Positions 35,351-62,082 of a stretch of DNA of 64,000 nt are shown one piece after another (positions within the stretch are counted from its first letter, which is position 1; the number at the start of each line of letters is the position of its first letter). Where the stretch lies: positions 12,323,263 through 12,387,262 of the forward strand of contig NC_134028.1 of the NCBI RefSeq assembly GCF_964204645.1. Direction: 5' to 3'. Position numbers and translations under genes: made by a program. This DNA is from Tubulanus polymorphus. Taxonomy: Eukaryota > Animalia > Nemertea. The notes below the pieces were generated by a model. It made no database searches. It was not told the origin of the DNA and saw only the letters and a list, made by a program, of their open reading frames with translations.

Positions 35351-35544
35351 ATTTAAAAAAAAATAGATTAATAAAAATAATGAATATCTAGAATCCGAAA
35401 TGACTTATCTGGACAATTTAATTGCTCCACATAGATGGTGCCATAAACAACACCCACACAGTGATAGACAAAAGTAGTGAGATGGTGCCGTACGGCACCC
35501 ACATGGTGATATTCAATTATTTTTTTTGCTTTTTTTCTAAAATA

Positions 35545-36454: not shown

Positions 36455-36747
36455 TTTTATAATAAAAAAATTAGTTGTGATGTTGCAACTAGAATTTAAC
36501 AAGAATGTAACTAGAATTCAACTAGATTAACAAGCTAGTTGAAATATTGTTGTTTTTGTTTATTTCTTGTTAAATCTAGTTGATTTTTGTTTCAACTACT
36601 AACAACTAGAATTCAACTAGAATGTAACTAGAATTAAAATAGATTAACAAGCTAGTTAAAATATTGTTAAATCTATTTGATTTTTGTTACAACTACTAAT
36701 AACTAGAATTCAACTAGAATTCAACTAGATTAACAAACTAATTGAAT

Positions 36748-37356: not shown

Positions 37357-38484
37357 TTATATATTTTTAATTTTACTTGATAATATCCATTCATTGAATT
37401 TATCTGGCCATCCAACCCATTTTACTAAAGAATATTTTTTTCTTTTAATAGTTTTTGTTTTTAATACTTTTTCAATTTTATATTCTTGTTCTAGATTTTC
37501 AGTAGTTAAACTTAATTCTTCTTCATAAAAGTAACCATCAACTTCTTCACCATCTAAATCTTCTAATTTATAGACATATGGTTTTGTTGTTATTACCTTT
37601 TTTATTTTATATATTTCTCTAGTAAAATTTCGATCGTATCCTTTGTCAAATATCTTTTTATACTTAGAAATTCTAACATTTTGACCAACTTTAAATTTAG
37701 GTTCACCAAAATCATCTACAAGAAATGCTCCATATAAATTATTCCAAACAATTTCAGCATTTTCAGGTTTTCTAGCATCAATAGGTTTCATTCCAATAGA
37801 AGAATGATAAGAATTATTATATCCTTCTATCAATTTTGGTAAAACATCAATCCATTTAAAAGTATTATTTGCTGTAAAATATTTCCACATTCTTGTTCTT
37901 AATGTTCTATTAAATCGTTCAACAACTGCTGCTTTTTTATCTGATTTTGTTGAAAAATATTTAATATTATGATTATCTAAGAGTTCATGAACAAGTGAAT
38001 TATCAAACTCTTTTCCATCATCAAATTGTATTTTTTCTGGATTTAGTTTATCATCCGAAAGAAATTTTCTTAAAACATTTGATGTTTGTACAGCATCTTT
38101 TCTATAAAGTGGGAAACTCCATACATAACGACTAAAAATATCAATTATATTCAATAACCACCAATAATCATCATTATCTTTCTTAACATTTTTCATATCA
38201 ATTAAATCTCCTTGCCACTGTTGATCTACATAACTTACCATAGTTTTACGAGTTTTATATTTTCTAACAATTTTTTTATGTGTTGTATATGTTGGTTGTT
38301 CTAACATAAATTCATTTATATCTTTATATTTAACTAAATTTTGTGGGATTATCTTATCTAATTTATCTTGTTTTACTTTACACCATATATTTTTAGTAGA
38401 AGAATAAGCAACCGAACTCTCAGGGTTGTAATATAAATTTCTTAAATATTGTTCTTTAGTATTAGGAGTTTTTTTACCACTCAT
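37357..38484 (-). CDS. Retroviral-like (RVE) integrase with C-terminal chromodomain
   Basis: WQGDLIDM (D), IQFDDGKEF (D), VVERFNRTL (E), and chromodomain YKIEKVL...LVKWVGWPDKFNEWI. Confidence 0.95.
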   Translation of the reverse strand: MSGKKTPNTKEQYLRNLYYNPESSVAYSSTKNIWCKVKQDKLDKIIPQNLVKYKDINEFMLEQPTYTTHKKIVRKYKTRKTMVSYVDQQWQGDLIDMKNVKKDNDDYWWLLNIIDIFSRYVWSFPLYRKDAVQTSNVLRKFLSDDKLNPEKIQFDDGKEFDNSLVHELLDNHNIKYFSTKSDKKAAVVERFNRTLRTRMWKYFTANNTFKWIDVLPKLIEGYNNSYHSSIGMKPIDARKPENAEIVWNNLYGAFLVDDFGEPKFKVGQNVRISKYKKIFDKGYDRNFTREIYKIKKVITTKPYVYKLEDLDGEEVDGYFYEEELSLTTENLEQEYKIEKVLKTKTIKRKKYSLVKWVGWPDKFNEWILSSKIKNI

Positions 38485-38514
38485 TTATATATCCTTAATT
38501 TTAACTTTATATTT

Positions 38515-39762
38515 CTAATATTGAATACTATCTAATTGTGAATTTACAATATTTAATTGCGCGTCAGATATAATATAAATGTGCATTTTAAAATTTTTGA
38601 TTCCTTTATTCTTTTTCATGAATAATTGTATTCCATCTTTAGTGTTCTGTAGTTTTTTTCCAGAACCATGTAATGAATTATCTTCAGTTGTTCTAAAATC
38701 TAACCATAATGCATATTTATTACCGGTATAATAATCAATTTGATTAATGTTACAATTTTCAGATGATTTCACTTTTTCATTCATAAAATGTTTTCTAATT
38801 TCTGGCCATTGATCAATCATTCTCATTCCTTGACAAAATATTTTATTTGCTATACCTTCGATAGTTATTTCTACTTTTGTTATTTCAGGATTATAATAAT
38901 TGTCAACATTTATTGCACCATTAGTATACGTTCCAATGGTAAAAAATATTAATATACCTTTAATAGATCTTCTAGGAAAGTTAATATTCTCATTAATTAT
39001 TTCATCATTTGCATTAATAGTTACAGTTTTAAATTTATCAATATAATCATATAATAATGAAAACCCTTGATTGTATTGAGTTTGAATTATACTTGAAATA
39101 TTTTCATCAGTTACTGTATCATATTCTAAACATATATTCGATAATTTATAACTCATATCTTTAACAACGCTAGATAATACAATTTCATTTACAGGAGCAA
39201 ATGTTATTTCAAATATATCGTCTTCTTGAATTGCGTATTTATATAAAGGTGCATTATTATTTATCAATTCAAAGTCTAATGGAATTTTATATTTACTTCC
39301 ATATATACTTTTTATCAATTTATCTACATCATTAGTTAATATTGCGCTATTAGCTTCTGATCTTAATTTATTTTGGTTTTCTGATTGAATTCCTTGAAAT
39401 ATCATATTATTTCTATTTTCTTTAGTTAACCATAAATCTTTATAATGCATAAATAAATTATAATCATCTAATGAGAAAACTGTTTCTGGACCAATCTTTA
39501 TTGTTAACTTTTTAATCAAATATCTTCCAACATTATCAACGACATAATCATTATTATTACCGATTACTTTTATATCAGCTGATAAATAAATACTGTTTGG
39601 AACATAAAAAGTATTTTGTGTTAATCTAGGAATTCTAACATATAAAGTTTCATCGGGATTAATATTTGAAGGGTTATGAGTAATTATATGATGTGATCTT
39701 TCTGCTTTAATAGCATTAGATATTCTAGAAATCTTAGAAGGACTTATATAACTCCCACTCAT
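38515..39762 (-). CDS. Major capsid protein candidate (double jelly-roll), 415 aa
   Basis: Size, beta-rich pattern, high conservation among copies and position next to integrase and ATPase. N-terminal NPSNI...LYVRIP and LIKKLTIKIG segments resemble Polinton-like virus MCPs. Confidence 0.7.
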   Translation of the reverse strand: MSGSYISPSKISRISNAIKAERSHHIITHNPSNINPDETLYVRIPRLTQNTFYVPNSIYLSADIKVIGNNNDYVVDNVGRYLIKKLTIKIGPETVFSLDDYNLFMHYKDLWLTKENRNNMIFQGIQSENQNKLRSEANSAILTNDVDKLIKSIYGSKYKIPLDFELINNNAPLYKYAIQEDDIFEITFAPVNEIVLSSVVKDMSYKLSNICLEYDTVTDENISSIIQTQYNQGFSLLYDYIDKFKTVTINANDEIINENINFPRRSIKGILIFFTIGTYTNGAINVDNYYNPEITKVEITIEGIANKIFCQGMRMIDQWPEIRKHFMNEKVKSSENCNINQIDYYTGNKYALWLDFRTTEDNSLHGSGKKLQNTKDGIQLFMKKNKGIKNFKMHIYIISDAQLNIVNSQLDSIQY

Positions 39763-39829
39763 TTATTTAACAAAAAAATCAATTATTTATTTTTTATTAT
39801 GGTTTACTTGATATTTTTTGATATCATGT

Positions 39830-41272
39830 TTACTTGATATTTTTTGATATCATATTCACTAACCCAAAAATAATAGCACTTACAACTGTAATTAAAAATA
39901 AAATAATATGTTCAGCAGCAAAGTTAAGAATATTCCCAGCAGATTTCAATATAAAACCAACAATTGATGCAATAACTCCTGGCAATGCTGCAGCAGATTT
40001 TTTAGATAGTTCCCATAAATATTTTGCTAATTTCTTTAAACCATCCTTAACTTTATCTTGTATAGAATTATTGCCTGGAGGTTTATCTGGTCTATTGGGA
40101 GTGGGAGTAGGAGTAGATTTTAAAGCATTTGATATAGCTAAACCAATTGTTGTAAATAACATAGTTACAGCTGTTAGAATTGAAAGAATTGTTATTCCTT
40201 CTAATTTAAATAATAATCTTATTCTGTCTTTTAGTGATATTTCAGAATTTGGTTTAATCAACAAATCTTTAAAAATAACTTTTAATCTATTAATATTATA
40301 ATCATATGATTTTAACAATAATTTAATTTCTTCTTTTTGTAATTCTATGTTATATTCTAAATCATCTTTTTCTTTTTCTAAACGTAATTCTTTTTGCCTA
40401 TATTCTATTTCATCAATTACTTGATGATCTAAATCAGACTTTAATTGTTCTATTTCTTTATTTTTATCAGTTAATTCTTTTTCTAAAGTTCTAATTTTAA
40501 AATCTCTTATACTTTTATTATGTGCAATTTTATCAGATGCAAGTCTTATACTAATAATTTCTCTAATTGCTTTATCAGAAAATATATCTAAATCTTCTAA
40601 TTCTTGATCTGTTGCATCAATTAATCCATTCGGTAAAAGTTTTTCAATTGGAACTTTATTTGATTTAAGTTTACTATTTTTGGAAGTTATATTCTGTTCA
40701 GAAGTTGTTTCTGTTTCTGATTTCTTTTTGATTATTTCAAATAATTCATTAATTCTTTGTTTAAATACATCTATATTATCATCTATTTCTTTTTGTGTAA
40801 CATCAGTTATTTCATTACTATTACTTATTATTTTAATTCTATCTGGTTTTAATTTTTCTAAAGTTGATTCTGATAATATTTTATTTTTATTATTTTTATA
40901 AGTGATATCAATATAATAATCACCTTTCAAACGATAATAACATTTACCATTATCTAAAAATTTTAATTGATCTGCTAAAAGTCCAACGTCTTCATCATTT
41001 ATGTTAAAATTAGATTTTTCAATTAAATCTTCTAATTTAGGTATTTTGTTTAAATTATCTAAATCTTGTTTTACTAAATCTGGGTCTAAATTTTCAGGAT
41101 TTAATTGTGATTCAGCATTTTTAATATAATCAGGCATATTTAAATTATTATTATATTCTGGTTCATTACCATCATTAAAACTTGTTTCATCAAAATCAGG
41201 TGGTTGTTCATCAGTTATGTTAGGTTCATCAAAAGGATCCATTCCAATATCTTCTCCACCTTCTACATCCAT
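39830..41272 (-). CDS. Acidic N-terminus, coiled coil and multiple C-terminal TM helices (480 aa)
   Basis: Intact ORF with hydrophobic stretches GITILSILTAVTMLFTTIGLAI, LPGVIASIVGFIL and IILFLITVVSAIIFGLV. Confidence 0.8.
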   Translation of the reverse strand: MDVEGGEDIGMDPFDEPNITDEQPPDFDETSFNDGNEPEYNNNLNMPDYIKNAESQLNPENLDPDLVKQDLDNLNKIPKLEDLIEKSNFNINDEDVGLLADQLKFLDNGKCYYRLKGDYYIDITYKNNKNKILSESTLEKLKPDRIKIISNSNEITDVTQKEIDDNIDVFKQRINELFEIIKKKSETETTSEQNITSKNSKLKSNKVPIEKLLPNGLIDATDQELEDLDIFSDKAIREIISIRLASDKIAHNKSIRDFKIRTLEKELTDKNKEIEQLKSDLDHQVIDEIEYRQKELRLEKEKDDLEYNIELQKEEIKLLLKSYDYNINRLKVIFKDLLIKPNSEISLKDRIRLLFKLEGITILSILTAVTMLFTTIGLAISNALKSTPTPTPNRPDKPPGNNSIQDKVKDGLKKLAKYLWELSKKSAAALPGVIASIVGFILKSAGNILNFAAEHIILFLITVVSAIIFGLVNMISKNIK

Positions 41273-41288
41273 TTATATAATAAAAAAA

Positions 41289-42677
41289 TTAAAATTTAAA
41301 ATATAATATTCCTCCTATAACAATTCCTATACAAGTTATAGCTAATTTAGTATTTTCATGGGATTTATTATCATCATTTAGTTTAATTATATCATGTTGA
41401 ATTTTATCAGTTTTTATATCTTCTGATGTATTATAATCTTTTATTTTAGAATCATTATCCAATTTAATATTCTTAGTTTTAGTTTCAGTTGATTGAATAT
41501 GTTTTTTATTTTTTTCACCTTCCATTAATTTTGGAGCAGTAATAATCTTTTTATTTATATCATTTAATCCAAATGAATTATTTATTGTTGCAGTTTTAAT
41601 TAGATTATTATAACCAATTATATTTCCCATCTTCAATACTAAATCATTAGAAATAATTAATAGATTAGGGCCTATACAATAATTAAGTCTTACATGAGAT
41701 TTATCTAAATAATTTTGATATCTTATAATGTTTTCTGGAATCGATCTATTTTTATCATTATGTATGGAATCTTCAAATAAAACATTAAATTGTTTTTGTG
41801 TATCGAATGATGTATTCAAATTTCCAATTATCGGTGATCTTGTTTCAACTTGCGCACCTAAAATACAAATTAAATAAGTTCTAATAGATTGATTTATTCT
41901 TTCTATACCTGATTTAGTAAAACCTTCACTATTCTCTAAAATAAAATATACCCAACCATTATTGTTTTCTTGTTTTAAATTATCATAAAATTTCGGTAAT
42001 TTATTGAAATTTAATGTTTCTAAATCCTTTGTTTCTATTTTACCATAACCTAATTTATTATTATAGATATTATAAAAACTATTAGATGGTATGGGAAGTG
42101 CACAATATTCTGCAATCTTTCTAGGGCAAGGAAGTGATCTTATTGTTCCAATTTTTGTTCTAAAATCAGAATTATTTATATCTATATTAAATTCATTGCA
42201 AATTTTATAAAACTTTGATAAATTAATATTATTATCTAATTCTTTGAAATATCTAGATCCTGGTAAAGCGCACTCTAATTCATTTAATATTATTCTGATT
42301 TGAAAGTATGTATGAAATCTAAATAAACTTTGAATTAATTTATATTTAGAATTATTCAAATGATCATTCCAACTAATTCCACAACCTGTTGTTGCACAAT
42401 AAACAGCAAAATTTAATTGGTTCTGCCAATACTTCATATTAGATTTTAATAACCATTGTTTTTCATCTTTCAATTTTTTTAAATTAATTAAATATACATG
42501 AAATATATTTTCCATCTTTGCATTAAAATTATTAGTTTCAGTAACATAAATATATAAATCAATTAATGAATCTAAAACTTCATTTCTATATGTAATATCT
42601 TTATTAAAATCTATTGCTGGAATATTATATTTAATTGATTTATTATATTGGAAAGCTTTTGGAAAACTATCTACCAT
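41289..42677 (-). CDS. Unknown protein with C-terminal membrane anchor (462 aa)
   Basis: Intact ORF with conserved YWQNQLNFAVYCATTGCGIS and terminal LAITCIGIVIGGILYF. Confidence 0.8.
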   Translation of the reverse strand: MVDSFPKAFQYNKSIKYNIPAIDFNKDITYRNEVLDSLIDLYIYVTETNNFNAKMENIFHVYLINLKKLKDEKQWLLKSNMKYWQNQLNFAVYCATTGCGISWNDHLNNSKYKLIQSLFRFHTYFQIRIILNELECALPGSRYFKELDNNINLSKFYKICNEFNIDINNSDFRTKIGTIRSLPCPRKIAEYCALPIPSNSFYNIYNNKLGYGKIETKDLETLNFNKLPKFYDNLKQENNNGWVYFILENSEGFTKSGIERINQSIRTYLICILGAQVETRSPIIGNLNTSFDTQKQFNVLFEDSIHNDKNRSIPENIIRYQNYLDKSHVRLNYCIGPNLLIISNDLVLKMGNIIGYNNLIKTATINNSFGLNDINKKIITAPKLMEGEKNKKHIQSTETKTKNIKLDNDSKIKDYNTSEDIKTDKIQHDIIKLNDDNKSHENTKLAITCIGIVIGGILYFKF

Positions 42678-42694
42678 TTATATAATTAAAAAAA

Positions 42695-43129
42695 TTAATA
42701 ATTTATTAATTCTTTTAATAATTTATCTTGTTCTTCAACTGTTATATGACCATTTAAACTTATTATATAATCTAGTGTGTTCTTTAATTTATTAATTTCT
42801 TTTATATTAGATTTTATTTTTTCTTTATTACTTTTTATATTTAATTTTGAACTTATACCAGTTAAAACACTTGAACTTAATCCTAACACACCAATTGATA
42901 TAGCTAAAGGTGTTAATGGACTGAATATTGCTAGAAATGTTATTACAGAACTAATTGTAACCGAACCACTGATAATAAGATAATATATAATTTTACTTTT
43001 TAAATATTTTTTCTTTTTTATCTTTAAGTCACTTTCAAATTCTAATATTTGTTTTTCTAAATATATTTTTAATTTAGTTTTATTTATATCATGATGAATA
43101 ATATCAATATTATCAACTTTATCTTCCAT
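42695..43129 (-). CDS. Two-TM small protein (144 aa)
   Basis: Two adjacent hydrophobic helices. Present in 3 copies. Confidence 0.78.
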   Translation of the reverse strand: MEDKVDNIDIIHHDINKTKLKIYLEKQILEFESDLKIKKKKYLKSKIIYYLIISGSVTISSVITFLAIFSPLTPLAISIGVLGLSSSVLTGISSKLNIKSNKEKIKSNIKEINKLKNTLDYIISLNGHITVEEQDKLLKELINY

Positions 43130-43148
43130 TTATTTAGAATAAAAATTA

Positions 43149-43571
43149 CTAATTAGTAAACTTATAAGCAACAAATATAACAATAACAGTTCCACCTAAA
43201 ATCCATATTATTTCATATTTCTGTTGTTCTTTACTCGGGGTATAATAATCTGATAATTTAGGTTTGTATAGATGTAATTTTTCTTTATTTGTTACTGCGT
43301 TATATAAACTCATTGCATCATCAACTGATTGAAAATCTCTATGTGAAATCTTCTGATCATATAATTCTTTGTTAATATAATCCATATAGTTTTGTCGTTT
43401 TTCTCTATATTCTTCCGCAGCTTTATTGTATTTCTCTAACGCTAAGTTATGTCTTCTTTGTTCTCCTAATGAACTATTTTTATCAATATGTTTAAATAAA
43501 TAACCACCACCAGTAAATGCTAAAGCGTTAACAATTGCCGGTCCTATAATAGTTATAATTGCAGAAGCCAT
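43149..43571 (-). CDS. Small protein with N- and C-terminal hydrophobic segments (140 aa)
   Basis: IVNALAFTGGGYLF, short coiled coil and terminal TM. Present in 3 copies. Confidence 0.78.
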   Translation of the reverse strand: MASAIITIIGPAIVNALAFTGGGYLFKHIDKNSSLGEQRRHNLALEKYNKAAEEYREKRQNYMDYINKELYDQKISHRDFQSVDDAMSLYNAVTNKEKLHLYKPKLSDYYTPSKEQQKYEIIWILGGTVIVIFVAYKFTN

Positions 43572-43596
43572 TTATTTAGCAAAAAAAATTATGCAT

Positions 43597-43818
43597 TTAT
43601 ATGGGAGGAATATATTTTTGTTTTTCCAAATAATCAATAGTTAAATTAGATAAAGTAACTGCTAATGTTAACTTTAAAATATCATTTATATCAAATCTAT
43701 CAACATTAACACTTCCCATTTTGAATACTTTTTTTAATACCATTGAATAACCAACCGTTCCAACTGATAGTAATGCACCATTATATAATCCAGTTATTAT
43801 CCACTTATTATCACTCAT
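43597..43818 (-). CDS. 73-aa hydrophobic protein
   Basis: Present in 4 copies, TAAATG start. Confidence 0.78.
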   Translation of the reverse strand: MSDNKWIITGLYNGALLSVGTVGYSMVLKKVFKMGSVNVDRFDINDILKLTLAVTLSNLTIDYLEKQKYIPPI

Positions 43819-44160
43819 TTATTTATCAAAAAAATTACTATCATCAAAATATTTAGTTAACTTATTTATGATTAATTCAACATTTATTTCATTACTAGTT
43901 TTATGATTATCATATATTTTGGATAATATGTTTTTGATATCTTCAATAATTCCATCTTCATTTAATTCATAATATTCTAAAGGTGATTTAATTAAATCAA
44001 TTACTTTTTCTATATTATACTTTTCTTTATCAATCATTGACGCATTGTTAAATGATTTACTTTTTATATCAGTAATTACATCATTTAGTTTAATTCTCAT
44101 TTCTTTACCATGTTTAAAATCAAACCCAAAACATATACTCGGTCCAACAGTTATATTCAT
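43819..44160 (-). CDS. Unknown 113-aa protein
   Basis: Present in 4 copies, TAAATG start. Confidence 0.72.
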   Translation of the reverse strand: MNITVGPSICFGFDFKHGKEMRIKLNDVITDIKSKSFNNASMIDKEKYNIEKVIDLIKSPLEYYELNEDGIIEDIKNILSKIYDNHKTSNEINVELIINKLTKYFDDSNFFDK

Positions 44161-44176
44161 TTATATAATGAAAAAA

Positions 44177-44935
44177 TTACTCTTTACATCTTATAACTAA
44201 TTCATAAATTACAGGGAAATTATTTAAATCAATTAAGTATCCATTATGATTTCTAATTTCTAATCTAAAATTATTAAAACGAGGAATGCATGGTTTGAAA
44301 TCACATTCTGTTAAATTATAATTTATTTGCGTTCCAAATTGTTTAACATTCTTCAATGGTAAAATGTTTAGTAAACCAGAATTACATGTTGTATCTTTAG
44401 TTGCTTCAAATGTTTTTGTAGGATCGATTAAATTGCAATAAATATAAAAATGTGTAAAAGGTATTATATTTGAATTACCGTCTACGTTTCCTGTAACAAT
44501 TTGTGGTTTAATTCCTAACAGTTTAGCTAAAGGTTTCCTTACCATAAATGCATGTTTGCTTTCATCATCTAACTTTATTTTAATTTTATCAGAACTATCA
44601 CTTTTTATAAATCTAATTGAAAATTTATATTCACTTCCAAGTTTTAAACGAGCTCTTTTATTAATTTCTTGGGCTAATGTTTCTAAATTATATAACCCTG
44701 GTTTTAACATTAGATAAAACCATTTATTTTTATTTTTCATATGAATTGCAAAACCTCTATGTTCGAAAGTTTTATCCGATATATTATAAAAAGAATTACA
44801 TAAACTTATATTTACTAATTTTAAATCAACGCAATTCTTAAATTCTCTATCTAATTGTACTAATAAATTATGAGATTTATAATTTGTAAGTTTTCTAGAA
44901 TCAACAAATATTCTGTATTCTTTTAATTCTACCAT
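44177..44935 (-). CDS. Minor capsid protein (penton, single jelly-roll) candidate
   Basis: IFVDSR, LCNSFYNI, PGLYN, FYIYCNLI and LEIRNHNGYLIDLNN..VIYELVI, the pattern typical of virophage/PLV pentons. Confidence 0.78.
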   Translation of the reverse strand: MVELKEYRIFVDSRKLTNYKSHNLLVQLDREFKNCVDLKLVNISLCNSFYNISDKTFEHRGFAIHMKNKNKWFYLMLKPGLYNLETLAQEINKRARLKLGSEYKFSIRFIKSDSSDKIKIKLDDESKHAFMVRKPLAKLLGIKPQIVTGNVDGNSNIIPFTHFYIYCNLIDPTKTFEATKDTTCNSGLLNILPLKNVKQFGTQINYNLTECDFKPCIPRFNNFRLEIRNHNGYLIDLNNFPVIYELVIRCKE

Positions 44936-45003
44936 TATTTATAACATAAAAAAATTACCGCTCATCACTAAAAATTAATTTTAATAAAATTTTTCCTTAA
45001 TAA

Positions 45004-46302
45004 ATGGATGAGAAGATAGCATGCGAAATTTGTGGTGAACTTCTAAGAAAAAGTAATAAGGCTCGACATATGAAAAAACATGATGAAAATTATAAACCCC
45101 CTAAAATAAACTGTCCAAAATGTAATAAATTATTCTCAAGAAATTATGTTAAAAAACATTCAGAGAAGTGTAGAATTAATGGCGCAACGGCTAATGTTGA
45201 TAGTAATTCTGCTGAAGTTGAACCTGAAGTTATTTGGAAAAGACCTTTCTTATTCTATGATAAGGATAATATAAAAGATCATTTCTGTGAGCCTTGTCAA
45301 GTAAAATATAGCCCTGAAAATATAGAAGATTGGGAGAATCATCAATTTCGTAAAGCACATATAGATAAAATTTCTAATAAATTTGAAACTGAATTCAATG
45401 AAAGAAAAAATAATTTATTAGAAAAAATAAAATATGAGAAAACGTTACCAGATAATAAAGAAACAGTTGAAAAGTTAGAAAAACAATATAATGAATTAAC
45501 AAGAAAAACATATTATTGTAAATATTGTAAATTGATTATTACAACAAGTAATTCAAATCTACATAATAGAACAATAAAACATAAAGAAAACGTAAGAAAA
45601 TACCAAGAGCTTAATGAAGATCTATTACCAAGAAATTATAAACAAAAATGCCCACAATGTAGTTATGCGACCTTAAGGCAAGAAGGTACTGTGTTATTTT
45701 GTGTTGAATGTGGATGGCAAAAGAATTTATGGGGTGAAGAAAAAACTAGAGATTTTCTCATAGAACCAAAATTAAATTATCTAGATGAAATTTTTAAAAT
45801 ATTTTCTATAGAAGATCATACACCAGAATATATGCAATGGCTTGAAAAAATGAAAATAATAGAAAATAAAAATGGTGAAATAACTAAAAAAGATATTATA
45901 AAAACAATTATTCCACCAACATTTAACACAAAACAAAAGAAAATGTATTTATATTTATTATTTAACGATTATTATGAAAAACCTAAATTAACAGAAGAAG
46001 ATATGGAAAATATAAAAAAAATATTTAAACAAATATTAATGTATTATTTGGAAAATAGAATAACAGATTCAATAAATTATGAATTCTTTTTAAATAAGAT
46101 TGTAAATTATTTAAACCTAGATATTATAATTCCATTTGATGAATTAACAAACAAAAAGAAACAAAGAGAGCGAGATGAAATGTGGAACAAGATAGAACTT
46201 TATTTAAATGAGAAAAATGGAATGGAAGAAGAACCTGAACAATTAAATGAAAATGAAGAAGCCAATAGTGATTTCGAGTTTGATGATATAGATCCATTTT
46301 AA
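45004..46302 (+). CDS. C2H2 zinc fingers fused to a poxvirus/NCLDV VLTF3(A2)-like late transcription factor domain
   Basis: Four N-terminal zinc-finger-like units, zinc ribbon CPQC...CVECG, and C-terminal PKLTEED..IKKIFKQI...INYEFFLNKI...RDEMWNKI. Confidence 0.7.
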   Translation: MDEKIACEICGELLRKSNKARHMKKHDENYKPPKINCPKCNKLFSRNYVKKHSEKCRINGATANVDSNSAEVEPEVIWKRPFLFYDKDNIKDHFCEPCQVKYSPENIEDWENHQFRKAHIDKISNKFETEFNERKNNLLEKIKYEKTLPDNKETVEKLEKQYNELTRKTYYCKYCKLIITTSNSNLHNRTIKHKENVRKYQELNEDLLPRNYKQKCPQCSYATLRQEGTVLFCVECGWQKNLWGEEKTRDFLIEPKLNYLDEIFKIFSIEDHTPEYMQWLEKMKIIENKNGEITKKDIIKTIIPPTFNTKQKKMYLYLLFNDYYEKPKLTEEDMENIKKIFKQILMYYLENRITDSINYEFFLNKIVNYLNLDIIIPFDELTNKKKQRERDEMWNKIELYLNEKNGMEEEPEQLNENEEANSDFEFDDIDPF

Positions 46303-49300
46303 TAACCATAAGGTAATGTTTTTATACCATCATCTGAAATATGCCTTTTATCATCAAATGGATTTAAACTAGTTTTTTCAACTTCATTAATGTACATCTC
46401 ATGATCTTCTGATCTTAAACAATTCATCTTGTGTTTCATTACAATTGATTTATATAAACACTTTATATAATCTTGAAATTCTATATGTTTATCAACCACA
46501 TGTTTTGTTATTCCTTTTAACTTTTTAGCTTCATGATCTTTTGTTCTGTAACTATACATTTTACTTCTTATCCCAACAAATTCAATCATTTCATCACCTC
46601 CTAATTCATCTTTAAATTTACCAGGAATCTTTTTATTATCATTGCTAAATAGTTCATGATCTTTAGGATAATTGCTAAAATCAAAATGATGTTTTAATGT
46701 TTTTAAGTCTTTTGTTATGTCATTTGTCTTGATTTTTAGTATGTAGGCGTCAGTATTGACCGCTATTAATGGAAATCCACAGTTAAATGTACCATCTTCA
46801 GTTGATAAATCATAAACATAATCTGTTGGGTTATATATTTCAAATAAATCTTTAACTTCTTCAGTTAACTCATTTTCTACATGGCTTAAATTAAAGCAAT
46901 TTGGTTTAGATTTAATCAATCCAATATTCATATTGAAGCCTAATGAATTACATAATATATTTAATCCTGATATAGCAACTTTTCCTTTTTGAGCAAAGGA
47001 TATTGTTTTGCGGTTTTGGAAACTTTTTGAACCATCTGCTGCATAGAATCCAATGAAGAACCATTTTCTTAAATTATTTTTTGCATTTAATACATAATCT
47101 GGAACTATCTTTTCTTTTGTCGAAGTATTACTTTTCACTATTGCATGAATATAGAATTCATCATTATATTCTATAGCAAAATCTTTAGGATTATTTACAA
47201 GTATTCTATAAACTGCTGATGATTTCATAACATCTATGATTTTGAATGTTTTATTTGGATAAACTTCTTCACAGAATTTCTTAAATCTTTCTAATAATTT
47301 TAAGTCTTGATTGCATAAATACCAACAATATTTAGTTCCACTAACATAATTATACACACCTGCTGAACCATCACCCATGAAAAATCCTTTGATAAAATAT
47401 TCTTTTTCTTCTAATGTTTCGGGTTCTATATTATAAATATTATCAATTATTTCATCAAATGACATATGATTCATTCTTGGGTAAAATCTCTTATGTAATA
47501 ATTCATCTCCAATTTTTATATCAATTGGTTTTATTTTATCACCATTTCGTTTAATTAAACTATGATCTTCTGTAACATCTACAAACCCTAATTTAGTTCT
47601 AACTCTATAGATTTTCTTATTTGTTTTATGCCTAATAATATTCTTTAATTTTTTCCATCCATTTCTTGTCCAAACATCCATTAAACCATTTATTTGTATT
47701 AATTCTTTTTCTCCATATGAAATATAACATTCATTTTGTTTTGGAATTATTTCTGAAATTCTTCTTACCAATATTTTATTATTACATTTTAATAATATTG
47801 GGGTGTCGGCCGTTACAGAATCGAAGTACAGAATTTCTATATGTTTTTCCCCAAACAATGGTTGTAAAACATTATAATAAAAATTATACATTAGTAATTT
47901 TGATATTTCCAAAACAGTTGAACCTATAAATATAGGTTTATTAAATTTTAATGATGTTCTTTTTAATTTTACTGCTGTTAAATAATCTTCAAACCTTTTA
48001 TTTCCTAAATGTCTAGGACTTGATTGTAAATGTCTTAATCTTTCAGAATTATTTACTAATTCAATATCATTTCTATTTCTAATATTTTCACATGTTTTAC
48101 CATAAAAACTATTATTCATTAATTTAAAGAAATCTTTTTCAAAATCTGTTTTTGATATGGTTCTCTGTTGAGTATTGAAATCTATATATTTTTCTAACCA
48201 CTTCGATTGATTAAATTCAATATATCTATGTACTTTCTTTAATTTCATTCCTTGTTTTAGATAAAATTTTAACATTCTATAATGAACAATATAATTGTAT
48301 TTATTATTTTGAGTAAGTATGAATTTTTCTGTAAAAACATGATCTTTCGGTTTTATTTTCTTCTGGTATTCACTTAAATAACTATCATCTACAGTTAAAT
48401 GTTCTGGGCAATAAGGTAAGTTTCTTGTTTTAAACTTTATATTTTCAGGATATTCTAAATCAACTACAAAGAAATAACCAATTGGTGCTTCATCTTTTAA
48501 ACTAATAATTGCGCTTTCCCAATCAGTTTTATCACCATTTTCAACTTCTGTTAATATAAAATTTTTATATGGTTGAGGTTGCATCATTGCCCAACCATAT
48601 AAATTATTGGCGTCAATATATAATAATTTATATTCATCATTTGCTTTAAAATACCTATCTCCCATAACACCACTAATTCCACCTCTAATTGATTTTTCAA
48701 ATAATAAAACCATATCTGGTTCTTTTAATAAATCTAATTCTACATTTGTATATTTTAAACCACATTGCCAGGTTAAACCAGGACTAGAGTAGCAATAACA
48801 AGGATCAACATTAAAATGATTCAAATTAACTTCTCTAAATTTTTCAAATATGTCAGCCAATATCATAACATCTGATTTCAAGTATAAATCTACTAATTCA
48901 CCCTGATTTTCTACCTTAAAATGATTCCAAATATTCAATGTTCTATTAAAAACTTCATCTTTCACATACTCCTCTTTTAATTGATCATAAAATTGTTCTT
49001 TTAATAATTCTGTTACATTAAAATCATCATGTGTTTTATAAAATGAATAAGGAATTGCGCCTTTATATCTCAATAATTTAAAATCTTGTTCATTTGGATA
49101 ATAATGTCGAGTTATTAAATCATTATCAACTATACTTTTTGCTAAATTATCTAATGAACTTGCTTAAAATCTATAAGAATCTAAAAATCTAATGCAACCA
49201 AATTGAAATGAAATATTATTTTCAGATGTCTTAGCTAATAGTTTAAAATCATATTTTCTTACATTTGCACCATTCATAGCATTATATTCTTCTATTTCTT

Positions 49301-51464
49301 GATTAATTGCGCCCAATTTTCCTGATAATTTTTTTATAAATAGATGGGTATCATAGCCCGATAGATTATGAAAAAATATTTTGTTACGAAATTAACTTTC
49401 TTAGCTTGTAAATTACAATCTTCATGAGCAGCTCCGCGGTATTTTCAATTTAAATGATCATGATCTCTAACTTTTTTATCAAATGAATATAAACGTTTTT
49501 CACAATAACAACAATGAGTTGCATAATTAAAATCAATTTCATCTTCTTTTGTCATAACTATTCTTTTATTTTTGTTTAATGATTTTGCAAAATCACTTTC
49601 TATTTCAATTATTTTGTTACAAAAATCATTCACTACATCTTCACCTCTAAGAGAAATATATTGACTTTCGTATAATTCAGGATAATTTGATTTTATGTAA
49701 ATTCCATAAGCAGCAGCTCTTTGATGAACTTTTTTAATTGTGTTTATCATTGGTGGATCTTGATTTATGTCTTCATTTAATTCATTTCCTTTATCCATTG
49801 ATTTTAGAAATTGCTTTTTATTGTATATTTCTTTTCTATCTTGATCAGTTAATTCTTTATTCAACGATTCAAAATCCCCATAAATAACAAATGGAACAAC
49901 ATTTTTAAATTTGTGATTAGTAAATTTCAACTTACAATCTTTTTTTGTTGGCATTATTAATTTTCAAAAATCTTTATTATCACATAATTCTTTATGTTTT
50001 ATTAATGTATTCTCAGCCGTGAATTTAGATAAACATTTTCTACATAGATAAAATTCAAAAATCTTTATTATCACATAATTCTTTATGTTTTAATAATGTA
50101 TTCTCAGCCATGAATTTAGATAAACATTTTCTACATAGATAAATTTTATGATGATGATCACTTTCTGTTCTAAAGAATAAATCAATTTGTTTTAACCACA
50201 TATAATGTTCATTTTCATCTTTTTTGTAATATAACAAATATAATAATTAATAGCATTTTCATCATCATAATATTCTGTTAAATATAAAGCTTCTAATGTA
50301 TAATCTTTAATATTTTCACCTTTTGTCGTTGGTAATTGCATTAATTCGAATACATTTATTTTTAAATTATTAACTTTTTCTATTTTAGGAATCATTTTTA
50401 TAGTTACTGGATATTGATCAATTTTATATAATGTTTCATATTTCCGGTAATCTGTTATTCTAAAACTATGCGTAATATCTTCTGTTGGGTGTAAGCAACT
50501 AATAATTGACCATAGAAAACATTTATTATCTTCATTTTGAACATTTATTACTGCTTTTGTTGTAAATGGTAATTTGATATAACTTGATGCTTTAATATCC
50601 TTTTCTGTTGTAAAGTTTGAATCATTTTTAAACATTGTTTTACTTTTTGATGTTTTATTCATTTTTGTATTATAAACATTTAAATCTAAAAATATGATTT
50701 CATTCAATGTTAAACCAGAACCCTCAAAATATCTTTCATCAATATGACGTTTAAATTCATTAAATATTTTTTCTAACTTCTCTTTTATTTGTGTTTTTGA
50801 AATTATTTCTTCAGAGAGTGTTTGAATATCATAATCCATTTTATCTTTTGACTTTAAAAAACTTACTTTCCCAGAGATACAAATTTTTGGATATTCAACA
50901 TCCGTTATCAAATCTAGTATTTTTTCTGCTATTTCATTAAATTCACAATAATCTTCTATTGCTGTACCTTTAAAAAATCTAAATATAATAGCTGCAGGAC
51001 CAATTTTACTATGTAATGTTTCTAAAATTTCAATTGTATCTTTTATTTCTAGTGAATCGATATAATTTCTAACATTTTCCATGTAAGGTTTATTTGAAAT
51101 GGATTTAGTTTTTGAAGTTGGTTTTTTTTACTTGTTGAGGTTTATCATCGAAATAATCTATTCCTAAAACATTATTACTCAAATTTTGATGGTGTTTTTG
51201 TGATTCGAGATGTCTTTTATAATTCCTATTACTATAAATTCATTACAAACTTCACATTTTATTTCATCCACATTCATATCATCTTATCGTTCTTTTCTTT
51301 CATTGGAATTTTCTGGAGTTTCATAATCTATTACATTTTTTATGAATTTATGATTTGCAGATTTTTCATGACGCGATTTTTGAGATTTATCAATGTATTT
51401 TTTACAATATTGACAATAATATTGATTTTCATTAACATCAATCAATTGTCTTATTCTCTCCCAA
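46299..51464 (-). pseudogene. polB: Protein-primed PolB with intein, copy 2 (C-terminal 924 codons open, N-terminal part frameshifted, start mutated)
   Basis: Exonuclease and polymerase motifs as in copy 1. ~91-bp tandem duplication at ~49964-50145. TAAATG changed to TAATTG. Confidence 0.93.
46755..47819 (-). mobile_element. Intact 355-aa intein with LAGLIDADG homing endonuclease
   Basis: In-frame insertion YFD|S...N|TDA. Block A SVTADTPILL, block B VDVTEDHSL, blocks C/E FIKGFFMGDGS and FFIGFYAADGS, block F YVYDLST, block G LIAVN/T. Confidence 0.93.
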
Positions 51465-51469
51465 TTATA

Positions 51470-51803
51470 AGGAAAAAAAATTACTTGTGGTGATGAGTGG
51501 GGATTACTTCCCCTTGTATATAACAAGCACGCAATCGTCCGTTCTCATCCAAGCCTCACAGCATCTATTTATCCGAGCACAGCTGACGCGCAATCACTGT
51601 ACTACAGTAATAGCACGCGTGTTAATAACCGTTCTCGGTAGCACCTCGCTGTATCGATCTATCCACGCGCAGCTGTTGTTGCGCAATCACTGTACTACAG
51701 TAATAGCAAACGCGCTAATAACCGTTCTCGCTAGTGCCTAGCTGTGATGAGAGGTGTCTCGACCTCACGACCTCTGGTATGAAAGCCTACTTTTCCCATT
51801 ACT
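51470..51803 (-). repeat. Right TIR of copy 2 including a ~250-bp GC-richer insert
   Basis: TIR core flanks a block that also occurs at ~33765-34005. Confidence 0.8.
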
Positions 51804-54437: not shown

Positions 54438-54728
54438 CTTAATAATTTCATATAAATGAACATTATTTACATGAATTTCACTTATTTTAAAAACATTTAT
54501 ATGTTAATTACAAAAGTGTGAGTAAATTGTGAGAAATAATTCATATTTTAACAGATTTCGAATAAAAATATAAGTAAAATAAATGGATAATTAAAAGAAT
54601 ATAAAAGTGTGAGTAAAGTGTGAGTGAAATAACTCATTTCATACCAGAGTACGAGACACCCGTCACAACTTTCATGGTGATATTCAATTAATTAAAATTA
54701 AATTATTTTTTGCTTTTTTTCTAAAATA

Positions 54729-55584
54729 TTAATCCATTTTTCTTATGTCAATTTTGGAATTTCAGAAGTATTTTCATTTTTGATATGAATTTTATTTGAT
54801 TTCTTATACCAACTACACCCAATCAAAATACAATTACAAATCCAGCTGTAAAATATAGATATTTATCAAATATTCTATTATAAGAAGGAGTAGAAATAAC
54901 AATATTTTCACCATTTTTATTACTTATTTTTTCTTTTACAGCTTTTTTATATTCTTGTGATTTAATTCCTAATTCCTAATTGCCGAGACCATTCAATTTG
55001 TTTCGGAGTTCTCGGTTTTTTCTTCACTTCTTCCACCTTGTTCATTTATTATAGAAATATTTTTACTTTCAATATTTGAAAATGTTATAACTCCAGTTGA
55101 TAATAATGTCATAAATCCACCTAATTGAAATGATAAATATCCAATCCATTTATTTAATTCAGTCATAACTAAATAATCATTATTTAAATCAGCATATAAT
55201 CTATTTTCATCTTGAATTGGCAGCATATAATTACATAATTTACTATAACCTTTTACTACATTTTCTGATATCGCATCATTAATTCTAGCTGTTCTCACGG
55301 TTTCATAAATCTTAAATAATCTAATGATTTCATCTGATTTCATTGTATTTAATTCATTATAAGTTAAATTTTTACCGATAAAATTTTTACATTTTCCTGG
55401 CGCTAATAATATTTCTAATTGATGTTTGCAATAAAGATAATATTCATAATTATTATTTGTTGTAACATTTATTTAAAGCACCATCATCTGGAGTTAATTT
55501 TGTTTCTGTTATTCCTAAATCATCTAAAGTTTTTTCAATTGGAACATCACCATTTTTAGATCTTATTTTCTTTTCACCTCCCAT
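54729..55584 (-). pseudogene. Two membrane-protein genes of copy 3
   Basis: Disrupted homologs of 35545-35916 and 35849-36454. Confidence 0.7.
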
Positions 55585-55791
55585 TTATATAACAAACAAA
55601 TTAGTTGTGTTGTTGCAACTAGAATTCCACTAGAATGTAACTAGAATTCAACTAGATTAACAAGCTAGTTGAAATATTGTTGTTTTTATTTATTTCTTGT
55701 TAAATCTAGTTGATTTTTGTTTCAACTACTAACAACTAGAATTCAACTAGAATGTAACTAGAATTCAACTAGATTAACAAGCTAGTTGAGT

Positions 55792-56400
55792 TTAAATAAA
55801 TTCATATTTAAATGGGTGTTGTAATCTAAATAGTAATTTTGATCTTTTATTATTTTTTAATTTATCCATATATTCATTATGTAAATCATGTGGAATAATA
55901 TCATTTTCCTCAAGCGCATTTTTCATCGATTTTCTATCTTTGTTATAAAATAAAACTAGAAATCTTATTTTCTCCCAAAAATCTTTAACAATTGAATTAT
56001 ATTTTTGATTTAAAACCCATGTTGTCATCCCAAAATGTCTCCCAGAGAAAGCTAAATAACATAACTCACTCTCTCTAATTTTTGAATCATGTAGATTAGC
56101 ACAATCATCTATAATGAATAATGTATTTGATCCTTTATAAATATCAATTGCTATTTCAATACAATTATCTAAATTTTCTATAACTGTTTTAGGATCTAAT
56201 ATAATAAATTTATTATTTCTAGTAATATTTCTATCATAAGTTTGATAAAATTCATATGTTGGACAAAATAATACTTTATTATCAAAATAGTTTTTATAAA
56301 TAATTTCTAATAAATTTAATATAAAATAAGTTTTTCCACAATTTGTTACGCCAGAAATTAACATATTATGAGGTTCAAATATAAATAATTCCTTATTCAT
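55792..56400 (-). CDS. Packaging ATPase, copy 3
   Basis: Full-length ORF with GVTNCGKT and FIIDD. Confidence 0.88.
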   Translation of the reverse strand: MNKELFIFEPHNMLISGVTNCGKTYFILNLLEIIYKNYFDNKVLFCPTYEFYQTYDRNITRNNKFIILDPKTVIENLDNCIEIAIDIYKGSNTLFIIDDCANLHDSKIRESELCYLAFSGRHFGMTTWVLNQKYNSIVKDFWEKIRFLVLFYNKDRKSMKNALEENDIIPHDLHNEYMDKLKNNKRSKLLFRLQHPFKYEFI

Positions 56401-56410
56401 TTATATATTT

Positions 56411-56842
56411 TTAATTTTTTCTTGATAATATCCATTCATTACATTTATCTGGCCATCCAACCCATTTTACTAAAGAATATTTTTTTCTTTTAACAGTTTT
56501 TGTTTTTAATACTTTTTCAATTTTATATTCTTGTTCTGGATTTTCAGTAGTTAAACTCAATTCTTCTTCATAAAAATACCCATCAACTTCTTCACCATCT
56601 AAATCTTCTAATTTATAGACATATGGTTTTGTTGTTATTACCTTTTTTATTTCCCTAGTAAAATTTCGATCGTATCGTTTATCAAATATCTTTTTATATT
56701 TAGAAATTCTCTTATCTAATTTATCTTGTTTTACTTGGTGCCATATATTTTTTACAGAAGAATAAGCAACCGAACTCTCAGGGTTGTAACATAGATCTCT
56801 TAAATATTGTTCTTTAGTATTAGGAGTTTTTTTATCCCCCAT
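56411..56842 (-). pseudogene. Integrase with the catalytic core deleted in frame, chromodomain retained
   Basis: KQDKLDK is joined directly to RISKYKK. Confidence 0.85.
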
Positions 56843-56872
56843 TTATATATCGTTAATTTTAACTTTATATTT

Positions 56873-58178
56873 CTAATATTGAATACTTTCTAATTAATAT
56901 TTCTAATATTGAATACTATCTAATTGAGAATTTACAATATTTAATTGCGCGTCAGATATAATATAAATGTGCATTTTGAAATTTAAATTTAATTTAAATT
57001 AAAAATTTAAATTTAATTTAAACTTTTCTTTTTCATGAATAATTGTATTCCATCTTTAGTGTTCTGTAGTTTTTCCCCAGAACCATGTTATAAATTATCT
57101 TCAGTTGTTCTGAAATCTAACCATAATGCATATTTATTGCCGGTATAATAATCACTTTGATTAATATTACAATTTTCAGATGATTTTACTTTTTCATTCA
57201 TAAAATGTTTTCTAATTTCTGGCCATTGATCTATCTTCTCATTCCTTGACAAAATATTTTATTTGCTTTTCCTTCGATAGTTATTTCTACTTTTCATATT
57301 TCAGGATTATAATAATTATCAACATTTATTGCGCCATTAGAATATGTTGCAATGGTAAAAAAATATTAATACGCCTTTAATAGATCTTCTTGGGAAGTTA
57401 ATATTCTCATTAATTATTTCATCATTTGCATTAATAGTTACAGTTTTAAATTTATCAATATAATCATATAATAATGAAAATCCTTGATTGTATTGAGTTT
57501 GAATTGAGTTAGCAATATTTTCATCAGTTACTGTATCATATTCTAAACATATATTCGATAATTTATAACCCATATCTTTAACAACGCTAGATAATACAAT
57601 TTCATTTACAGGAGCGAATGTTATTTCGAATATAACATCTTCTTGAATTGCGTATTTATATAAAGGTGCATTATTATTTATCAATTCAAAATCTAATGGA
57701 ATTTTATATTTGCTTCCATAAATCTTTTTAATCAAATTATCTTCGTCATTAGTTACTACTGCATTTATGGCTTCAGATCTTAATTTATTTTGGTTTCTGA
57801 TTGGATGCCTTGAAATATCATATTATTTCTATTTTCTTTAGTTAACCATAAATCTTTATAATGCGTAAATAAATTATAATCATCTAATGAGAAAAATGTT
57901 TCTGGACCAATCTTTATAGTTAATTTTTTAATCAAATATCTTCCAACATTATCATCAACATAATTATTATTATTACCAGTTACTTTTATATCAGCTGATA
58001 AATAGATACTATTTGGAATATAAAAAGTATTTTGTGTTAATCTAGGGATTCTAACATATAAAGTTTCATCGGGATTAATATTAGAAGGATTATGAGTAAT
58101 TATATGATGTGATCTTTCTGCTTTAATAGCATTAGATATTCTAGAATTCTTAGAAGGACTTATATAACTCCCACTCAT
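56873..58178 (-). pseudogene. Major capsid protein candidate, copy 3
   Basis: Frameshifted homolog of 38515-39762. Confidence 0.7.
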
Positions 58179-61100
58179 TTATTTAACAAAAAATTAATTA
58201 TTTGTTTTTTTATCAAATTCACTAACCCAAAAATAATTGCACTTACAACTGTAATTAAAAATAAAATAATATGTTCAGCAGCAAAGTTAAGAATATTCCC
58301 AGCAGATTTCAATATAAAACCAACAATTGATGCAATAACTCCGGGTAATGCTGCAGCAGATTTTTTAGATAGTTCCCATAAATATTTTGCTAATTTTTTT
58401 AAACCATCCTTAACTTTATCTTGTATAGAATTATTATCATTCGGGGGTTTATCTGGTTTATTTGGAGTAGGAGTAGATTTTAATGAATTTGATATGGCTA
58501 AACCAATTGTTGTAAATACCATAGTTACAGCTGTTAGAATTGAAAGAATTGTTATACCTTCTAACTTAAATAATAATTTTATTCTATCAAGTAACCCATT
58601 TTGTAAAAGTTTTTCAGTTTGAACTTCGGTTGATTTAAGTTTACTAGTTTTGGAATTAATAACTTCTTTAGGAATTGTTTCTGGTTCTAAATTTTCATTA
58701 ATTGTCTTCAAAAAATCATCATTTCTTCATTTAAATTCTATTCTATCTAGAGTTATCTCTTCTTCTGTAACATCAGTTATAACATAATTATTGATTTTCT
58801 TAATTCTAGATTGTTCTAATTTAATTAAAGTTGATTTTGTTATTATTTTATCAAGACTTTTATTAGAAGATATCTTAGAATAATAATCATCTTTCAAATG
58901 CCAATAATAATCACCATTTAAATATTTCAAATCTTTCACTAAATAATTCATACCTTAATTTGTTATACTGAAACCAGATTTTTTTAATGTTGGTTTAAAT
59001 TTATCAGTTAATTCTTCATATTCTAATTCTTTTTTTAATAACCCTGGATTTTCATTTTCAATATCCAATCTTGAACGTGCTTTATTAACATATTCATTAG
59101 TATCAGGTCTTACTAAATTAGAATTATGTGCTGTTTCATTATCGTTACTAAAACTTGTTTCATCAAAATCAGGTGGTTGTTCATCACTTATACCAGGAGC
59201 GTCATCTAAAGGATCCAATGGAATATCTACTTTTGCCATTTATATAATAAAAAAATTTAAAATATAATATTCCTCCGATTACAATTCCTATACAAGTTAT
59301 AGCTAATTTAGCATTTTCATGGGATTTATCATCATCATTTAGTTTAATTATTTCACCGTGTGGGTGCCATATCACCATTATCATGTTGAATATTGTGCCG
59401 TACGGCACCATCTTCTGATGTATTATAATCTTTTATTTTAGAATCATTATTTAATTTAATATTCTTAGTTTTAGTTTCTGTTGATTGAATATGTTTTTTA
59501 TTTTTTTAACCTTCCATTAATTTTGGAGCAGTAATAATCTTTTTATTTATATCATTCAATCTTAATTAGATTATTATAACCAATTATATTTTTCCATCGT
59601 TAATACAAAATCATTAGAAATAATTAATAGATTAGGGCCTATACAATAATTTAATCTTATATGTGATTTATCTAAATAATTTTGATATCTTACAATGTTT
59701 TCTGGAATCGATCTATTTTTATCATTATGAATTGAATCTTCAAATAATAGTTTGAATTGTTTCTGTGTATCAAATGATGTATTTAAATTTCCAATTATTG
59801 GGGATCTTGTTTCAACTTGTGCACCTAAAATACATATCAAATAAGTTCTAATAGATTGATTTATTCTCTGTATTCCAGCTTTAGTAAAACCTTCACTATT
59901 TTCTAAAATGAAATTAATCCAACCATTATTATTATCAATTTTATAATTATGATAAGCTATAATCAATATGCATATAATCAATTATTTTTATTTCATACTG
60001 TTCACCAATACCTTGCAATTTACCATGAGCTCTAAAATCGGATTTAATATTCATATTAAATTCATTACATATTTTATAAAACTTAGATAGATTAATATTA
60101 TTGTTTAATTCTTTAAAATATTTAGATCCAGGCAAAGGACATTCTAATTCATTTAATATAATTCTAATTTGAAAATATGTGTGAAATCTAAATATTGTGT
60201 GAATTAATTTTAATTCAGAATAATTTAAATTTTTATCTAAGTTATTTAAATGATCATTCCAACTTATACCACAACCAGTTGTTGCACAATAAACAGCAAA
60301 ATTTAGTTGATTCTGCCAATATTTCATATATGATTTTACATTATATATATGATATTCATCTCGAGTAAAAGTAACTTCATATGTATTAAATATATTTTCC
60401 ATTTTAGAAATAAAGAACTAAAGAACTGTGATTCAGTAACATAAATTTCTAAATCAGTTAATGAATTTAAAACAAAATTTTTATATGTAATATTTTTGTT
60501 AAAATCTATTGCAGGAATATTATATTTAATTGATTTATTATATTGGAAAGCTTTTGGAAACCCCATTTATATAATAAAAAAATTAATAATCAATTAATTC
60601 TTTTAATAATTTATCTTGTTCTTCAACTGTTATATGGCCATTTAAACTTATTATATAATCTAGTGTATTTTTCAATGTATTAATTTCTTTTATATTAGTT
60701 TTAATTTTTTCTTTATTACTTTTTATATTTAATTTTTAACTTATACCAGTTAAAACACTTGACCTTAAACCTAACACGCCAATTGATATAGCTAAAGGTG
60801 TTAATGGACTGAATATTGCTAGAAATGTTATTACAGAACTAAATGTAATTGAACCACTAATAATAAAATAATATATAATTTTAATTTTTAAATATTTTTC
60901 TTTTTTATCTTTAAATCACTTTCGAATTCTAATATTTGTTTTTCCAAATATATTTTTAATTTAGAATTATTTATATTCTGAGGAATAATACCAATATAAT
61001 CAACTTTATCATCCATTTATTTAGCAAAAAAATTACTAATTAGTAAATTTATATGCTACAAATATAACAATAACTGTTCCATTTAAAATCGGAATTATTT

Positions 61101-62066: not shown

Positions 62067-62082
62067 TTATATATCAAAAAAA

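Follow-up and report, generated by a model that had tools for sequence, protein, structure and literature searches.

A predicted homing intein in the catalytic motif of a Polinton-type DNA polymerase in a probably animal genome

Could a true intein reside in an animal genome, and how would it have come to occupy the active site of a polymerase carried by a virus-like mobile element? The question is raised by a window of 64,000 nucleotides (the whole stretch of DNA that was analysed), which contains three copies of a ~17-kb element. Copy 1 lies on the plus strand at 17423..34666, with its left end at the junction with host-type DNA, copy 2 lies on the minus strand at 34908..51803 between terminal repeats beginning AGTAAT, and a third, decayed copy occupies 54637..64000 on the minus strand, where the window ends before its polymerase. 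The Polinton hallmarks PF03175 (protein-primed DNA polymerase, pPolB), PF00665 (integrase) and PF04665 (ATPase) are all above their cut-offs, and the element termini are inverted repeats starting with AG. Copy 2 encodes, all on the minus strand, an A32-type packaging ATPase at 36748..37356 (Pox_A32, E 9.8e-12), a retroviral-type integrase at 37357..38484 (rve, E 4.2e-10, with a weak chromodomain match, Chromo, E 8e-4) and a probable double-jelly-roll major capsid protein at 38515..39762 (Capsid_N, E 0.0035, below cut-off). The capsid candidate scores 0.97-0.98 to viral clusters in the Atlas, with capsid families on 10-24% of the members and recognition below threshold. No adenain-type protease or minor capsid protein was recognised among the 24 ORFs by the Pfam scan. 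The hexamers flanking copies 1 and 2, at which a 6-bp target-site duplication was looked for, do not match; the two copies abut and are rearranged. They are arranged as mirror images, and a 242-bp polymerase fragment at 34667-34908 separates the right terminal repeat of copy 1 from its left counterpart in copy 2.

The polymerase gene of copy 2 is interrupted within its motif C. The host ORF, 46299-49163 on the minus strand, is a 954-codon open stretch reading ILYFD, insert, TDAY, in which the N-extein ending in YFD takes up 47820..49163 (PF03175, E 3.9e-15; an open stretch only), the insert 46755..47819 and the C-extein, from Thr+1 (TDAY) on, 46299..46754. Its translation confirms the sequence-only reading, which had claimed an in-frame insertion of 355 codons that splits motif C into YFD and TDA. 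Against the intein-free polymerase P0207 the two flanks are 72% and, for the C-terminus, 75% identical and meet on a single YFDTD motif, the insert being unmatched. The strand, which had not been given before, is minus: translated from 47819 to 46755 the insert yields 355 stop-free residues from Ser1 (SVTADTP) to a terminal AVN, and the plus strand across the same interval has many stops. Every motif reported earlier is present in the translation, i.e. the Ser start, TEDH, GFFMGDG, GFYAADG, VYDL, the terminal Asn and Thr+1.

These residues are those of a class-1 intein with a LAGLIDADG endonuclease. We found in the sequence a Ser nucleophile, a block-B TxxH (T83/H86 in TEDH), a block-F Asp (Asp337), a terminal Val354-Asn355 and a Thr+1, together with two LAGLIDADG helices carrying the catalytic Asp150 and Asp262 and a block-D Lys (Lys237). 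The N-terminal Hint (splicing) region spans 47481..47819 (roughly residues 1-113, modelled entirely as beta structure), the two-motif LAGLIDADG endonuclease region 46881..47459 (about residues 121-313) and the C-terminal Hint region 46755..46860 (VYDL to FNCGFPLIAVN), all on the minus strand. Profile searches for the Hint and LAGLIDADG parts, which the sequence-only reading had proposed, place TIGR01445 (intein_Nterm) on residues 2-88 with 32.5 bits against a curated cut-off of 24.5, and LAGLIDADG_3 (PF14528) on residues 252-299 with 30.5 bits against 22.5. Pfam Intein_splicing stays under its cut-off of 35.8 (30.4 bits, E 3.9e-7), and no intein C-terminal model matched the 355-residue insert. 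The penultimate residue is Val in copy 2 and Phe in copy 1, not the usual His. A penultimate His is usual in class-1 inteins and not universal; among 255 related complete inteins the position is His in 122, Lys in 96, Phe in 9 and Val in 4, and 133 of the 255 are without His.

We predicted the 3D structure of the copy-2 intein from an alignment of 37 rows, one of them a mis-bounded archaeal row (L125), and obtained a model with pLDDT 89 and pTM 0.90; the single-sequence prediction gave pLDDT 38. The Hint fold is modelled as being formed by both ends of the intein. The best PDB fold matches, namely TliVMA (E 4e-19), PI-PkoII, PhoVMA, PI-PfuI and PI-SceI, are endonuclease-bearing inteins, with TMq values of 0.56-0.67 for the top five in Foldseek comparisons against the whole inteins. 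The endonuclease region has I-DmoI and PI-type fold matches, and the top viral fold matches of the model are phycodnavirus, pandoravirus and marseillevirus polymerases. Ser1, the block-B His, the block-F Asp, the terminal Asn and both LAGLIDADG Asp residues are kept in all 21 pPolB inteins that were checked, down to ~44% identity. Our analysis of the sequence confirms the insert at 46755..47819 as a full-length Hint+LAGLIDADG intein in a Polinton-type pPolB, with splicing predicted. A Hedgehog-type Hint domain is rejected since both splice junctions and an endonuclease are present, and these features together with the empty alleles described below mark the insert as a true intein.

The same insertion occurs in copy 1, as had been claimed. 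It lies on the plus strand at 21073..22144, is 1072 nt long, ends in CFN before TDA and is 94.4% identical to copy 2 across an alignment of 1063 nt; near 21571 its frame is shifted by 7 additional nt. Near 21869-21892 the alignment of the two copies has two 2-nt gaps, which compensate each other. These gaps fall in the loop after the second LAGLIDADG helix (21869-21892 versus 47009-47030), where they alter ~8 residues in what is likely a DNA-contact region. The dN/dS ratio between copies 1 and 2 is 0.32 for the intein and 0.16 and 0.09 for the exteins. By the junctions the copies differ at 17 of 75 nt, mostly silently, versus a background of ~4.8% (binomial p 8e-8), the windows having been chosen after inspection (47805-47849 and 46740-46769 versus 21043-21087 and 22130-22159). 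This excess of mismatches could possibly reflect recoding of the homing target, or else separate homing or invasion events. The polymerase genes of both copies are broken outside the intein and are pseudogenes, and hence these two copies cannot show function. The gene of copy 2 has, upstream of the open stretch, a stop at 49164-49166, then a frameshift near 49375 and additional stops as far as ~51400. It also contains a 93-bp tandem duplication at 49963-50146.

Alleles with and without the intein coexist in the species. The read set X5, a whole-genome run from a different study with the same species label, of which ~12% was read, covers both the flank and the element. At the left end of the element (17423) 798 of its reads extend beyond the element into dissimilar sequences (agreement 0.34), the pattern that many insertion sites would produce. 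At 85% likeness the depth is 156-250 over the intein versus 322-437 over the N-extein, and at least 63 reads span an empty site, 23 of them with a skip of exactly 1072 nt and two further sets, of 11 and 29, with variant junctions; both alleles are therefore present. Very roughly, filled and empty alleles are half and half among related subfamilies. The depth over the flank, which may itself be repetitive, is 30-41. The search for intein-free alleles that had been suggested is thus answered both by the X5 reads and by the polymerases of relatives. An assembly artefact is rejected in view of two diverged copies, independent reads and relatives from several sources.

The closest relatives of the intein are inserted at the same site of other protein-primed polymerases. 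P0002 is 63% identical, the other complete ones are 40-51% identical and fragments reach 66-74%; the short filled fragments P0122, P0123 and P0202 were assigned to pPolB by flanking motifs only. The next-best matches are RNA-primed PolBs at YGD/TDS with at most 42% identity, and the nearest named relatives outside Polintons are GVMAG intein loci at 42%. All 26 complete pPolB inteins lie at the same motif-C site, and the best matches outside pPolB are mostly YGD/TDS inteins, likewise inserted between the motif C Asp residues (D/TD). A word-free search of 1.84 billion representatives gave 280 matches at 1e-30, and among the 150 matches listed from it none of the 138 new proteins has a pPolB-like extein. 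No Polinton-like locus near the query identity was found in viral (37 loci), metagenome (80 of 130) or prokaryote-genome (11) contigs, where the best full-length match is 42%; the prokaryote-genome matches are weak (best E 4e-18, 24% identity). The same intein family is also found in topoisomerase II-like proteins (at two sites) and in an ADP-ribosylglycohydrolase-domain protein, mostly at D/TD-like or GD/SA motifs (P0008, P0112, P0118, P0041, P0361, P0458). P0116, named Pol delta of the green alga Chloropicon primus, is a relative at YGD/TDS, and P0009, an RNA-primed PolB, has two related inteins nearly back to back in motif C, one after YGD and one after the following TD.

The occupancy of the site is patchy among the related polymerases. 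Among the best 120 pPolB matches, 109 are empty at the site, 4 are filled and 7 are unscored, and the nearest ones (72-73%) are empty. A 90%-identity cluster has 136 members on contigs of up to 1.0 Mb, and of the 15 listed members 7 are filled, 6 empty and 2 uninformative. A second cluster has one filled and one empty member on almost identical exteins, and P0178 and P0181 are filled and empty alleles on near-identical exteins with branch lengths of 0-0.002. Many empty pPolB alleles (P0220-P0321) read D-C-D, not D-T-D, and a Cys+1 is in no filled allele seen.

The pPolB inteins group together among inteins of giant-virus-type polymerases. On a FastTree tree of 137 rows, from which 10 near-duplicate or short rows had been dropped beforehand, 17 of 17 pPolB inteins are on one side of a branch, and in two IQ-TREE subsets they form one clade (12 of 12 and 10 of 10) with support 100/100. 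These intein trees are unrooted, 10 of their rows are labelled giant-virus MAGs and archaeal Pol-c inteins are not among the rows. The clade falls among giant-virus-type PolB inteins with a sister-group support of only 61/88, the other IQ-TREE subset likewise giving no supported sister group. A C-terminal signature is present in 26 of 26 complete pPolB inteins versus 20 of 229 others, and the clade of these 20 includes the GVMAG loci L001, L002 and L007.

The intein is old in this polymerase lineage, as its identities correlate with those of the N-extein (Mantel r 0.95, Spearman 0.70, p 0.0001, n=10). A recent transfer into this element is rejected since the intein and its host polymerases co-diverged. 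On a quick extein tree, for which 72 rows were selected (every one of the 24 filled and 48 of the 116 empty), the filled or empty state requires 13 changes, at least 9 of them being forced by starred branches; such parsimony counts cannot orient gain versus loss, and the patchiness also fits one gain with many precise losses. The intein of P0006 is 42-51% identical and its N-extein does not align with that of the window polymerase (E 2.9 or worse), suggesting a lateral move between polymerase classes. Its place in the tree is not forced, a position outside the other pPolB inteins being not rejected by the AU test (p 0.185). From these sequences we infer at least one move of the intein between two unrelated polymerase classes.

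The sequence-only reading had called for an intein phylogeny and had envisaged a crossing from an NCLDV-type PolB into a pPolB, with co-infection of one cell. The single clade at 100/100 among giant-virus-type PolB inteins and the 42% identity of the nearest named relatives outside Polintons agree with such a crossing, but the event is old, concerns several lineages and leaves its donor lineage at 61/88 only. The idea of a feature peculiar to this family, or of a recent jump, does not hold, as several Polinton polymerase lineages carry the intein and have largely co-diverged with it. For the same reason any co-infection would be ancient and would lie in the deep past, possibly in another host.

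We consider the insert to be a homing intein in the catalytic motif of the pPolB, which is predicted to self-splice and was likely captured once, long ago, from a giant-virus-type PolB and maintained since then by homing into copies that lacked it, with a probability of about 0.75. In class-1 chemistry an N-terminal acyl shift is followed by transfer to the +1 residue and by cyclisation of the terminal Asn. Here Ser1 would undergo the acyl shift, aided by Thr83/His86 and Asp337, Thr+1 would take the N-extein, and Asn355 would cyclise, so that YFD is rejoined to TDA and both motif C aspartates are reunited. As splicing restores motif C, the polymerase would work only after splicing, and this dependence would protect the insert from imprecise loss. 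The endonuclease might cut motif C in other element copies whose site is empty, and repair of the break would copy the intein into them; a multicopy family of which one species has both filled and empty alleles would offer a supply of such targets. The history may be one of a single entry into protein-primed polymerases, a long co-divergence and repeated loss or regain.

An alternative hypothesis could be that the intein is real and old and has now become passive, having entered once and been inherited vertically, with the empty alleles arising by precise loss or never having been invaded and with no homing in this animal. We regard this as unlikely, yet it deserves more weight than the other alternatives. 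The strong intein-extein co-divergence is what passive inheritance would give, the polymerase copies in the window are dead, the parsimony counts leave the direction of change open, and only 4 of the best 120 pPolB matches are filled against 109 empty and 7 unscored. But unused homing endonucleases usually decay, and the catalytic residues of this one are kept in 21 of 21 checked pPolB inteins; filled and empty alleles sit on the near-identical exteins of P0178 and P0181; and the mismatches between copies cluster at both junctions, in windows picked after looking. It could also be that the donor was a cellular Pol delta or another protist mobile element, or that the Polinton clade itself was the source, the transfer having taken place in a protist host and the animals having been reached with the Polinton. 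The Chloropicon primus relative P0116 at the same site, the 61/88 support in a tree whose root was not inferred and the presence of the family in topoisomerase II and ADP-ribosylglycohydrolase-domain proteins lend this some room. We give it little credence since P0116, at 32% identity, stands far from the pPolB clade, the clade indicated by the shared C-terminal signature is the one with the GVMAG loci and the prokaryote-genome matches are weak; the protist-host part of it is compatible with our main reading.

The window itself is probably animal, as judged from the flanks. The GC content drops from ~38% to 23% near 17.4 kb, and the host-type flank at 8396..13920 contains a hAT/FAM200-like (FAM200/ZBED5-like) transposase fragment (8396..9037, minus strand) and a LINE-like reverse transcriptase (12331..13920, minus strand; RVT_1, E 4e-31). 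The look-alike Atlas clusters of the flank ORFs are 94-100% Eukaryota, the commonest being Arthropoda, with a recognition score below threshold. Just before the element the host flank also has a long 30-bp tandem repeat (15172-16800). If the window were instead from a protist, a symbiont or a contaminant, the intein would be one of a microbial eukaryote and the absence of inteins from metazoans would be untouched. The low recognition score of the flank ORFs, and the fact that the relatives of the intein are mostly ENA/JGI proteins, would suit such an origin, which we nevertheless hold to be very improbable: the LINE-like and FAM200/ZBED5-like pieces with their eukaryotic clusters speak against it, and so does the separate whole-genome run with the same species label, which covers flank and element and has many insertion sites. 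The filled relative P0011, filed under a symbiont MAG of the clam Ctena on a 2.5-kb contig, may be host DNA and counts on the same side. P0011 (Thiodiazotropha ex Ctena) and P0213 (Sulfurimonas) are both Polinton-type polymerases under bacterial MAG names, possibly host DNA binned with symbionts.

What we see is a known intein allele (Pol-c) in a new class of host protein; its copies are numerous in a genome that is probably animal, and several Polinton lineages have it in common. We speculate further, at somewhat less than even odds, that animal genomes harbour working inteins, i.e. that a giant-virus-derived homing intein is in an ongoing cycle of invasion and loss among the Polinton copies of several animal lineages, as a natural gene drive within a transposon family, which selects for silent recoding of the active-site DNA and can pass from one polymerase class to another, unrelated one by way of the conserved motif-C target. 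Many integrated copies with an intein that looks intact would break the rule of intein-free Metazoa, although the intein is housed in a resident virus-like element rather than in a host gene; the absence of inteins from metazoans has also been used as a premise for the safety of intein inhibitors. The range of the Pol-c allele is widened from RNA-primed to protein-primed polymerases. The data provide sequence evidence for DNA exchange between giant viruses and Polintons, which is relevant to the question of whether Polintons encountered giant viruses or were parasites of them. Since one species has both filled and empty alleles, homing and target-site escape become directly measurable in an animal genome.

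True inteins had been said to be essentially unreported in Metazoa, and this agrees with the counts of Green et al. 2018 (PMC5784728), which give 0 inteins, 522 Hedgehog and 660 Hint proteins for Metazoa, and with PMC8529194, in which metazoans lack inteins. The viral polymerase inteins listed by Green et al. 2018 come from families of Nucleocytoviricota and from unclassified viruses. PMC12220804, PMC3671162 and PMC5718144 mention inteins in general terms. The animal Hedgehog/Hint proteins (PMC5784728) share with our insert the Hint fold and the TxxH chemistry, whereas the present case has in addition an endonuclease, a splice junction at each end and alleles that lack the insert. Nor had a Maverick family with an intein been known to the sequence-only reading, and we likewise found no description of an intein in a Polinton polymerase in the open-access literature, covered mostly by its main texts.

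The element resembles the Polintons/Mavericks (adintoviruses) of Starrett et al. 2021 (PMC8502044) in having a pPolB, an rve integrase, an A32/FtsK ATPase, a probable capsid protein, terminal inverted repeats and many genomic copies. It differs in its intein and in that a maturation protease is not recognised here; the word intein is absent from the main texts of Starrett 2021, Kazlauskas 2020 and the stony-coral polintovirus paper. Nuclease domains inserted in Polinton pPolBs are known from the HNH and VSR cases of Jeong et al. 2023 (PMC10748475), whose main text does not contain intein, LAGLIDADG or Hint. That work is cited by Krupovic et al. 2024 (PMC11161782), who propose in a single sentence that the endonuclease domains of pPolB result from intein invasions, a speculation to which our data give substance. 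The HNH/VSR domains are without described splicing parts, whereas the insert in our element is a complete intein and splits the catalytic motif.

Viral DNA-polymerase inteins brought into nuclear genomes by viral integration were reported by Gallot-Lavallee et al. 2023 (PMC10710043) from nuclear scaffolds of the algae Klebsormidium and Tetrabaena and the labyrinthulid Hondaea, which makes them similar to the present case. Unlike here, the hosts are algae and a labyrinthulid with Nucleocytoviricota-like polymerases, and two supplement files of that paper do not mention polinton, maverick or metazoa. The YxD/TD position, which had been identified as the Pol-c site, matches the pol-c definition (YGD/TDS) of Ogata et al. 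2005 (PMC549080), who described a 351-aa intein in the Mimivirus PolB. Our insert is like these Mimivirus-type Pol-c inteins in its motif C site, Ser1, terminal Asn, Thr+1, TxxH, LAGLIDADG motifs and similar length, the Mimivirus sequence being compared by its description only. It is unlike the giant-virus Pol-c inteins in that its host is the protein-primed polymerase of an integrating Polinton-type element and in that it belongs to a clade of its own.
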